Source of the DNA: Octopus sinensis | Taxonomy: Eukaryota | Assembly (NCBI RefSeq): GCF_006345805.1 | Contig: NC_043012.1 | Span: 47,492,001-47,556,000 of the forward strand | Reading direction: 5' to 3' | DNA: 64,000 bases | Shown here: piece after piece, positions 1,551 through 4,872 of the stretch | How the letters are laid out: every line of letters starts with the position of its first letter | Position numbering within the stretch: position 1 is the first letter of the stretch | The notes under the pieces: model-generated | Told to the model about the DNA's origin: nothing | Database searches by the model: none | What the model saw: only the letters and a program-made list of their open reading frames with translations | Made by a program: the position numbers and the translations under genes

Positions 1551-1826
1551 TATATATATATATATATATATATATATATATATATATATATATATATATA
1601 TATATATATATAATAGATTTCTAAATATAGCAGAGAGTTATATGCAGTAGTGGTACGGTAGAGTAGTTGTATACTGTCGACTTAATCTGACAGTCCCATG
1701 AAAAGAATAACACTACTACTATTTAGTCTTAGGAAGCAGCAACGCTTCCTGTCAGCCTTGACACATTTCCTGTGCCCTTATCTTTACAAGGGGGAGACAA
1801 GCACCTCCACCTAGCTAAGCCTGCAA

Positions 1827-1867
1827 CCAGAGACTAGTTTCTGCGTCTTTGCTCGTCATCAGTCTGG
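1827..1867 (-). ncRNA. Minimal type-I hammerhead ribozyme motif (inverted arm copy)
   Basis: Reverse complement reads ccaga-CTGATGA-cgagcaaagacgca-GAAAC-TA-GTC-tctgg. Stem II is weakened. Confidence 0.7.
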
Positions 1868-2127
1868 AGTAGCATGGCTGGAGATGCCTGTCTAGCCCTT
1901 GTAAACATATAAGAATTCTAGTGAAATAAATCCACTGATTACAAATATAGAAATAATAAATTTCCAAATATCTCAGAGAGATATATGCAGTAGTGGTACG
2001 ATAGAGTAATTGTATAGTGTCAACTTAATGTGACAGTCCCATGAAAGGAATATCACTACTAATATTTAGCCCTAAGATGTAGTTTACAAGGCTAGACAGG
2101 CATCTCCAGCTAGCAGGCCATGCTACT

Positions 2128-2168
2128 CCAGACTGACGACGAGCAAAAACTCAGAAACTAGTCTCTGG
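2128..2168 (+). ncRNA. Minimal type-I hammerhead ribozyme motif
   Basis: ccaga-CTGACGA-cgag caaaaa ctca-GAAAC-TA-GTC-tctgg: 5-bp stem I (ccaga/tctgg), intact CUGANGA and GAAA core, GUC triplet, palindromic stem III ACTAGT. Confidence 0.8.
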
Positions 2169-2726
2169 CTGCAGACTTAGCTGGGTGGAGGTGTGTGTCT
2201 CTCCCTTGTAAACATAAGGACACAGGAAATGTGTCAAGGCCGACAGGAAGCGTTGCTGCTTCCTAGGGCTAAATAGCAGTTGTGTTATTCCCTTCATGGG
2301 ACTGTCACATTAAGCTGACAGTATACAACTACTCTCTCTCTCTCTCTGTATATATATATATATATATATATATATTATATATATATATATATATATAATA
2401 TATATATATATATATATATATATATATATATATATATATATATATATCTATATATATATATATATATATATATAATATATATATAATATATATATATATA
2501 TATATATATATAATAGATTTCTAAATATAGCAGAGAGTTATATGCAGTAGTGGTACGGTAGAGTAGTTGTATACTGTCGACTTAATCTGACAGTCCCATG
2601 AAAAGAATAACACTACTACTATTTAGTCTTAGGAAGCAGCAACGCTTCCTGTCAGCCTTGACACATTTCCTGTGCCCTTATCTTTACAAGGGGGAGACAA
2701 GCACCTCCACCTAGCTAAGCCTGCAA

Positions 2727-2767
2727 CCAGAGACTAGTTTCTGCGTCTTTGCTCGTCATCAGTCTGG
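2727..2767 (-). ncRNA. Minimal hammerhead motif (duplicate of 1827-1867)
   Basis: Same sequence in the second tandem unit. Confidence 0.7.
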
Positions 2768-3028
2768 AGTAGCATGGCTGGAGATGCCTGTCTAGCCCTT
2801 GTAAACATATAAGAATTCTAGTGAAATAAATCCACTGATTACAAATATAGAAATAATAAATTTCCAAATATCTCAGAGAGATATATGCAGTAGTGGTACG
2901 ATAGAGTAATTGTATAGTGTCAACTTAATGTGACAGTCCCATGAAAGGAATATCACTACTAATATTTAGCCCTAAGATGTAGTTTACAAGGGCTAGACAG
3001 GCATCTCCAGCTAGCAGGCCATGCTACT

Positions 3029-3069
3029 CCAGACTGACGACGAGCAAAAACTCAGAAACTAGTCTCTGG
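3029..3069 (+). ncRNA. Minimal hammerhead motif (duplicate of 2128-2168)
   Basis: Same sequence in the second tandem unit. Confidence 0.8.
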
Positions 3070-4872
3070 CTGCAGACTTAGCTGGGTGGAGGTGTGTGTC
3101 TCTCCCTTGTAAACATAAGGACACAGGAAATGTGTCAAGGCCGACAGGAAGCGTTGCTGCTTCCTAGGGCTAAATAGCAGTTGTGTTATTCCCTTCATGG
3201 GACTGTCACATTAAGCTGACAGTATACAACTACTCTCTCTCTCTCTCTGTATATATATATATATATATATATATATATATATATATATAGATATATATAT
3301 ATATATATATATAATATATATATATATATATATATAGATATATATATATATATAATATATATATATATATATATATATAAATACATATATGTATTTCTTT
3401 TACATAATCGCAATGTTCAATTCAATAAGATAATTCTTTTGTAATATATTTAGTACACAAATACTTGATTTAACACAAACAATGACATTTGAATTGCTAA
3501 CATATTTTCTTAATCTTTCTGTGGTATACGACATCGGCCGATGAAGTCAGGCACCGGAGATTTAAAAAAGACATGGGTTTAACATTGTTGTTGCAATTCT
3601 GTAAAGGAGGGGCGTAATGGAGGATTTATAATCGTTACGATAGGGATATGAATAACAGCAATGTTAAGGTTAGCGATTTGATAACATTGTATTAATATTA
3701 TGCAGGCAATTAATAGATAACTTCTTGATACCCATTGCATTCGTTTCTTCTGTTATCAGGACGTGTTCCGTTGTAGAGTGGCTGCACGGAAAACAGGCAC
3801 TATTAATTTACTGAACTGCCAAGTAGAGTGACAGTAACTGATATGACTGACAGGATGACTTTTACAAATCTCTTCTCTGCAAATCCAGAGTAGTTTGAGG
3901 GACTCTTTAAGAATGGTACAACGGAGGTAACAAATAAAAATGATTTTTAAAAATTTACTTATGTAACTGACGTGAGCTGTTCCCTGTAAGCTAGAATAGT
4001 CATCGAAACAGAATATGCAGTGGTTACAAATGATAGAATTTAAGAACATGAAATAGGTTGTCGGATATCTAAATGAAAATTGACAATATAGACGCACGGT
4101 AGTAACTGAAATAAAATAACTTGTGTCTAAATAACATTTTTGGAAACTCGTTAACGAGTAATGTAATAGCACTACTAACACAGAAGAACACAGTATTGAT
4201 TTGTGAAAGCGTTTAGTATAGTTTATTATGGTTGCATAACGAAATATGGTAATCCTACAGGTCATTAATACTTCTGGAAACGTCAGCAAAATACCTTCCA
4301 CGCGTTTATTAAATTTAGTATAATCAATGGTCAACACTGCAGGATACAGTTGAATGCTTTAAGTGAGGTCTTACATGAAAATAGATTTAAAATGTATGCT
4401 ATTAAAAAAGTCATCACCTTGAATACAATATCTAATTTTAAATAGGGAAATATGTGGTAGTAATATAGAAGATCAGAGACACGTAATAATGATTAGAAAA
4501 ATTTTGAAAGATACTTATATCAGAAGATTACATAAAATGTATGTTGCAATGATATAAATCGGAAAAAAACAGATCATCTTCCCAAAAGTAATTACAGTAA
4601 CCGACTTGCCTTAGAAAGTGTAAGGAAAAGGACAGTTGTAGGCATTCACAACATTTAAAATTGATGGTGGTGGTATTTTGAGATGTTGCGTTGACAGATT
4701 ACACCCAGCTACTTTCAACTTCTTGATCGATTCGGAGTACTTAGAGGCGAAATGTTCCGCAAGTGAACAGGAACAACTACTATGAACAGCGATCTAAACT
4801 GGGCTCTCCAAAATACACTCCAGCAACGTAATTAATCATTTCCAGACAAATATGTAATTTAGACGAGGTGTA

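Follow-up and report, generated by a model that had tools for sequence, protein, structure and literature searches.

A decayed 351-nt hammerhead ribozyme family with Penelope-type insertion anatomy in the genome of Octopus sinensis

We analysed a 64,000-nt stretch of the Octopus sinensis genome (NCBI RefSeq assembly GCF_006345805.1, contig NC_043012.1, positions 47,492,001 to 47,556,000; hereafter the window), near the left end of which four hammerhead ribozyme motifs lie in two almost identical palindromic units. With good confidence we explain this locus as one decayed insertion of a 351-nt non-coding hammerhead family. Its template was likely an RNA, circular or multimeric, and the reverse transcriptase (RT) and endonuclease (EN) of a Penelope-like element (PLE) likely carried out the integration; a single duplication between (TA)n tracts followed, either a recent event in the genome or an artefact of assembly. 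Direct observations cover the length of the unit, its copy number, the anatomy of its insertions, a pair of fixed 3′ ends, read-through of both the monomer junction and the ribozyme cut site, a conserved catalytic core and compensatory stem changes. The best reading of the family, on its sequence, is a decayed retrozyme of the type without long terminal repeats (non-LTR), a non-autonomous parasite of PLEs whose RNA would be cleaved and circularised. It is a new family of an already known kind of element; no description of it appeared in the literature searched, which lay apart from most subscription papers, Repbase and Dfam, and supplements may hold lists of mollusc retrozymes.

The genome searched comprised 2.72 Gb in 13,516 contigs, and family positions are numbered r1–r384 along a reference copy, L045:1372-1755. 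The repeat is a 351-nt non-coding head-to-tail monomer whose single type I hammerhead sits within a long hairpin (CUGA at r130, predicted cut after r160), as the original prediction of a non-autonomous, retrozyme-like element would have it. Tandem spacing is 351 nt, with L009 units starting at 1595 and 1946, and complete hammerheads occur in at least two consecutive units at that spacing in L009, L016 and L021/L027. The genome-wide motif search that had been proposed gave 162 matches to the exact young family core and none to its reversed control; a looser core with an ACUAGU stem gave 859 against 7, a count that includes other families. Since the core so far outnumbers its reversed controls, the window motifs are not chance occurrences. 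Rfam hammerhead families gave no match in window 1–6000 or in eight other loci. A 3′ 21-mer of the element had 647 exact matches (control, 0), and the window unit as query yielded 3,028 candidates at first look, 40 of which were scored. By identity to L045, copies group as young (about 90–95%), older (about 78–86%) and oldest (about 70%).

Some observations on individual copies stand apart. L017 and L018 are the same insertion, on the small unplaced contig C8205 and on C2, which suggests unpurged haplotype contigs. Insertions at L105 (830–1050) and L107 (302–555), 2 Mb apart, carry similar foreign repeats of 220–250 bp, placed identically between the arms; these may be passengers that were copied along with the element, or the pair may reflect an old segmental duplication. 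Family-like pieces were also seen in assembled contigs of three runs that we guessed to be RNA; such contigs show neither circles, strand nor level. A search across sequencing runs listed none of RNA that contained the family, the best share being 0.26.

Insertion anatomy was scored at 70 loci matched by the 3′ 21-mer (the first 30 places listed and 40 fetched); excluding a satellite and three duplicate samplings of a single insertion left 66 insertions. Six places already in the hammerhead-core set were skipped, so hammerhead-bearing copies are under-counted. An inverted arm was present in 40 insertions and absent from 26. Among the 40, 29 had one long and one short end, one was long at both ends, one short at both, and nine had an eroded end. 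The outer ends (n = 106) comprised 52 short (about r334), 41 long (r372 or beyond, really about r390) and 13 other, so that 93 of 106 belong to two classes; the 3′ ends are thus fixed, about 50–55 nt apart. The 5′ ends vary, spreading over r1–r327; the inner ends of inverted arms likewise vary, and their outer ends are unequal. An apparent 5′-end hot spot at monomer position 92 was an artefact of an 8-nt deletion in the window copy, then used as reference, and disappeared with L045. An intact hammerhead was found in 27 of 66 insertions, and one on each strand in a single insertion.

This is the anatomy described for PLEs: a partial tandem, an inverted 5′-truncated copy and a 30–40-bp tail on one end (PMC8557442, PMC3846280). 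PLE-type integration is therefore likely, and the proposed link to PLE hammerheads is borne out at the level of insertion structure. Opposite-strand hammerheads are a by-product of inversion already known from PLEs, pairs 100–700 bp apart having been noted in truncated elements in 2014 (PMC4209133).

Many insertions look palindromic, and a hammerhead-free 125-bp satellite of at least 25 copies (L098 869–3952) derives from r254–r364 of the element, as might be expected if the family were a DNA-level palindromic repeat, whether a miniature inverted-repeat transposable element (MITE), a foldback element or a satellite, with the hammerhead an inert passenger. However, the variable inner ends, the unequal outer ends and the 26 insertions with no inverted arm do not fit such a repeat, the truncation polarity (3′ ends fixed, 5′ ends variable) largely refutes it, and the core is spared while the stems compensate, as detailed below. 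We regard it as very improbable.

The same anatomy together with a hammerhead also characterises PLE pseudo-long terminal repeats (pLTRs; PMC4209133), and the copies could be 5′-truncated pLTRs of an autonomous PLE not found here rather than an independent non-coding unit. The genome holds 16,172 PLE endonuclease candidates at first look, of which 150 were scored and few families examined, and one fusion of an open reading frame (ORF) to the element exists, at L046. But in every junction-crossing copy (15 of 66 insertions) it is r351 of the same unit, not an ORF, that lies upstream of r1, and at 30 loci picked by their hammerhead a PLE frame adjoins the element only at L046, through an internal inversion. 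No PLE frame in register with the unit was found among the copies examined. We consider a pLTR origin unlikely.

Two kinds of evidence bear on the template of the 351-nt unit. At the cut site, a pattern beginning at r164 has 171 matches, and of the first 90 of these copies 82 continue upstream through the site. The template was therefore mostly uncut or re-ligated there, and the fixed 3′ ends do not coincide with the ribozyme site. A circle and an uncleaved multimer fit alike. Second, copies within one insertion share rare variants three to nine times as often as unrelated copies do. Per 100 nt, young-subfamily sharing was 1.17 for tandem, 0.49 for inverted and 0.13 for unrelated pairs (24, 38 and 6,609 pairs), and older-subfamily sharing was 1.52, 0.53 and 0.17 (5, 34 and 4,041 pairs), a signal carried largely by a few loci (L021, L009 and L005). 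Such sharing fits one template read more than once.

RNA structure was counted in 55 of the 77 copies covering r70–r222. An RNAalifold consensus of the 55 gave only a 5-bp non-catalytic helix and was replaced by a structure made by hand from the family sequences, which is thereby favoured over slid controls. It sets the hammerhead atop an interrupted stem of ∼45 bp, with 87.9% of cells paired. Cells changed on both sides numbered 60, against 31 in shuffles, and the pairs at columns 13/141, 17/137 and 25/126 each switch in 13–18 copies. Pairing runs at 78–98% per pair in stem I, 91% in stem II and 96% in stem III; an extra unpaired base flanks each side of stem II. The family has the CUGANGA/GAAA/NUH core and the three helices, open at stem I, that define a type I hammerhead, here with a short stem III, a 3-bp stem II and a long stem I. 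Mismatches to the commonest letter of the subfamily were 13/406 in the core and 225/2,908 outside it, in copies chosen regardless of core. In the oldest copies stem II has shifted towards GGG/CCC-like pairs. The monomer folded as a circle reaches –118 kcal/mol (z = –6.5 against 60 shuffles). That ribozymes of this kind cleave as dimers is supported by PMC6765202; of nine dimers tested, only one cleaved (bioRxiv 10.64898/2026.07.22.740005).

Separately, twelve hammerhead-like motifs (L151–L162) have the same GAAACUAGUC with another stem II and unrelated flanks, and represent further families or old remnants.

As to the mobilising enzyme, the genome contains a large PLE family with a C-terminal GIY-YIG domain and a zinc-finger linker. 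The labels PLE and Neptune-type are presumptive and follow from characteristic motifs (the RT signature, a CxxxxCxxC linker and a GIY-YIG-like IYAITC...YIG); Pfam gave no match for two L046 frames. L046 (1380–2773) is a chimera: a broken PLE RT frame, cut before the endonuclease, leads directly into an element fragment with an internal inversion, and the whole ends in (TC)n(TA)n, possibly through a template switch. The Neptune-like PLE targets (TA)n and ends in TATTTCTAYT, like the long end of the element (21 and 29 anchored ends). Its terminal repeat is not homologous to the 351-nt element, one PLE lineage having been examined. Within about 4 kb upstream of 12 other ACUAGU hammerhead-like motifs we found no RT match; seven further loci in that scan were older-subfamily copies and one was without the motif. 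The Neptune-type PLE is our candidate partner of the element.

The 3′ terminal repeat of this PLE has a hammerhead variant of its own, in 4 of 20 loci (L204, L205, L210 and L219), with core AUGAAUA or AUGAUUA (A3-U8 replacing C3-G8). Its stem III is a palindrome, for example CCAUGG or CCGG, and the cleavage position is occupied by A; several other copies have TAAA or AAAA in the place of GAAA. A U3-A8 swap in PLE hammerheads has been reported (PMC4209133).

In the mechanism that we propose, tandem source copies would be transcribed, and two hammerheads would pair through ACUAGU and excise a 351-nt monomer, which a host ligase would close into a circle. A PLE enzyme would prime at a TA-rich target and copy more than one round; an early stop of copying would give the 5′ truncation, the inverted arm would be built from the same template, and a staggered cut would leave the tail on one end. 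In its most specific form the family would be a fossil record of retrozyme movement, a 351-nt ribozyme-cut RNA circle read for more than one round by a Neptune-type Penelope enzyme that recognises the shared TATTTCTAYT, with a staggered cut of about 50–55 nt leaving the tail on exactly one end. We put forward that full version tentatively, as possible but rather less probable than not.

Several results weigh against the proposal. Eight of the 90 copies, one with an internal deletion, have 5′ ends at r159–164, a weak excess over the four or so that the upstream rate (42 events in 886 window-exposures) would give. The number of pairs with a change on both sides, 10, is not above shuffles (121 of 500 reach it), and the shuffle control for compensatory changes ignores the relatedness of copies. 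None of 17 fixed subfamily differences falls in the 17 core columns, which spares the core but alone is not significant (about 2 expected). Forcing the double hammerhead on natural 351-nt tandems costs 12.1, 14.6 and 14.2 kcal/mol from the equilibrium fold. Tandems have at most two to three units, so that the long arrays typical of retrozymes are not seen, and only one of the 66 sampled insertions has two intact same-strand hammerheads. A TA or TC microsatellite adjoins only 18 of 106 ends. As for the partner, the shared TATTTCTAYT is AT-rich and is partly the search anchor itself, and no homologous terminal repeat adjoined the fused PLE in 19 other copies or in 20 copies of related subfamilies.

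With the family defined, the window locus resolves into the following features (strand given where there is one).

1551–1612, no strand: (TA)n tract, left flank, likely the insertion target
1610–1983, minus: full 351-nt monomer (r1–r351), running on to about r382 of the next unit; 88% identical to reference L045, with an 8-nt deletion in the long stem
1612–1659, minus: tail of ∼50 nt, only on this outer (long) end
1827–1867, minus: hammerhead motif 1, CUGAUGA core at 1862, predicted cut after 1832, stem II damaged (GAG/CGC)
1951–2077, minus: 5′-truncated partial copy (r258–r384) in tandem with the full monomer, pLTR-like
2072–2091, no strand: inversion junction, exclusive to the window locus
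2082–2338, plus: inverted 5′-truncated copy (r78–r335), 93% identical to the reference, with the tail-less short end, then (CT)n(TA)n
2128–2168, plus: hammerhead motif 2, CUGACGA core at 2133, predicted cut after 2163, family-type fold intact
2349–2512, no strand: (TA)n tract separating both units
2512–3250, no strand: second copy of the whole insertion, identical except for one extra G in a G run
2727–2767, minus: hammerhead motif 3, the copy of motif 1, core at 2762, predicted cut after 2732
3029–3069, plus: hammerhead motif 4, the copy of motif 2, core at 3034, predicted cut after 3064
3250–3394, no strand: (TA)n tract, right flank

A whole-window motif scan (CCAGA stem I, CUGAYGA, stem II, GAAAC-UA-GUC, UCUGG) returned these four hammerheads. 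The original prediction of two per strand thus held for the motifs themselves and for the predicted cuts at 2163 and 3064, but not for their condition or class. The minus-strand motifs have stem II GAG/CGC in place of the family GAG/CUC and the 8-nt deletion in the enclosing long stem, and for that reason only the plus-strand pair fits the family fold; nor are the four motifs of the ‘min-HHR’ type of PMC4209133, which has a long helix II and lacks loop 3. Stem III is the palindrome ACUAGU, as had been noted, which would imply cleavage as a dimer.

The ∼740-bp palindromic unit was likewise half right. Its arms are inverted (positions 49–295 and 471–724 of the unit, 88% identical), but a third piece, the 123-nt direct repeat at 1955–2077 (87% identity), had been missed, and the palindrome is not the element. 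Read on the minus strand, the unit runs from the inverted r78–335 through the partial r258–351 to the full monomer, to about r382. Each unit has one hammerhead per strand, and no insertion here has consecutive complete hammerheads on the same strand. We found no RT or GIY-YIG reading frame in the unit or adjoining it, among the long frames listed for the window.

The duplication of the unit ∼900 bp apart inside (TA)n was confirmed: 1612–2349 and 2512–3250 agree at 738 of 738 aligned bases, the second having one extra G. Because the arms have drifted by 12% and the units have not drifted, the duplication came long after insertion. With both breakpoints in (TA)n and a homopolymer indel as the sole difference, the duplication could stem from unequal exchange involving the TA tracts, a recent genomic event, or from an error in long-read assembly. 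The 663 kb of loci fetched contained no further direct duplication that reached 200 bp and 98% identity, the assembly offers no second version of the right flank with which alleles could be compared, and among contigs from four sequencing runs none spans the duplication.

The duplicated palindrome had also been read as a two-polarity cassette, a transcript of either strand forming a double hammerhead and releasing a ∼900-nt circle. On each strand the same-sense motifs are indeed spaced by 900–901 nt, the predicted fold leaves the downstream hammerhead nearly free (3.6 kcal/mol on plus, 8.1 on minus), which would make a trans dimer possible, and co-transcriptional folding could differ from the equilibrium fold. 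But the equilibrium prediction places the double hammerhead 61.7 (plus) and 82.7 (minus) kcal/mol above the minimum-energy fold, a cost due to predicted pairing of the upstream ribozyme with the antisense arm. Moreover, the unit of the family measures 351 nt and each monomer has a single hammerhead, on one strand only; the minus-strand stem II is broken; the inversion junction has two exact matches in the genome, both inside the window, and has not spread; and the duplication is 0% diverged against 12% for the arms, with nothing similar in the 663 kb. We therefore abandon the ∼900-nt mobile unit and the two-polarity system, which we judge extremely improbable. The striking four-ribozyme look of the window comes from an inversion of the ordinary kind and a duplication whose reality is in doubt, and the locus itself is a dead copy.

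A second hammerhead repeat family lies in the window at 20450–20790, with its core at +20586, the same C-GAG...CUC-A closure of stem II and a longer stem III. Its inverted-arm anatomy is alike, with opposite-strand pairs at L327 and L330; it gave 2,924 candidates at first look, with a cluster of copies on C27 at 8.35–9.28 Mb, and no RT or EN match in 20 loci. Elsewhere in the window, a repeat at 1184–1550, just before the left TA tract, ends in a GC hairpin followed by CTAGT, and we take it to resemble a non-autonomous Helitron end. A MITE-like imperfect palindrome at 925–1067, after a (CA)n(TA)n tract, has a sub-threshold Rfam match to a miRNA, and a short run of TTAGGG repeats at 4871–4895 lies far from the contig end.

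The family bears on which enzyme mobilises animal retrozymes and on whether its template is circular. PLEs have been proposed as the mobilisers (PMC7229834), a link backed by co-occurrence and by pLTR trees (bioRxiv 10.64898/2026.07.22.740005), and hammerheads have already been annotated in a cephalopod genome (PMC6962438). The family described here is a hammerhead-bearing non-coding unit with a countable PLE signature, namely a single tail on each inverted insertion, copies that run through the cut site and private variants held in common, which makes it a usable substrate for a PLE retrotransposition assay. Were its circle indeed read by a Neptune-type enzyme, this would amount to direct structural evidence for PLE mobilisation, beyond co-occurrence or phylogeny, and would name a candidate partner.

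On sequence criteria the unit qualifies as an animal non-LTR retrozyme, and on structural criteria as a PLE-type insertion. Like the retrozymes described by Cervera and de la Peña 2020 (PMC7229834) and by Li, Clavereau and Pollet 2026 (bioRxiv 10.64898/2026.07.22.740005), it is a non-coding unit in the 150–450-nt range (350–390 nt in mussel) with one type I hammerhead and a short palindromic helix III, has a stable fold and head-to-tail copies, and shares its genome with PLEs; a mismatch at the base of helix II, U-U in our older subfamily, recalls axolotl HHR_Amex2. Unlike them, the family consists mostly of dispersed, truncated, inverted single insertions of at most two to three units, and is decayed (about 10% between young copies). 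EN-containing PLEs (PMC8557442, PMC3846280) share with it the partial tandem, the inverted 5′-truncated copy, the tail on one end and, in part, TA-rich flanks, but have an ORF, a unit of about 3 kb rather than 351 nt and a tail of 30–40 rather than about 50–55 nt. The pLTR hammerheads of PMC4209133 resemble those of the family in their sense orientation and in opposite-strand pairs a few hundred bases apart, and differ in a helix II of 7–8 rather than 3 bp. Non-autonomous Chlamys elements such as MRC1 (PMC8557442) offer a further parallel, as non-coding PLE dependants with pLTRs and head-to-tail insertions that resemble their autonomous partners at the 3′ end; those clades, however, belong to green algae and are without canonical hammerheads, whereas the 3′ likeness of the octopus family to its candidate partner extends over only about 10 nt.

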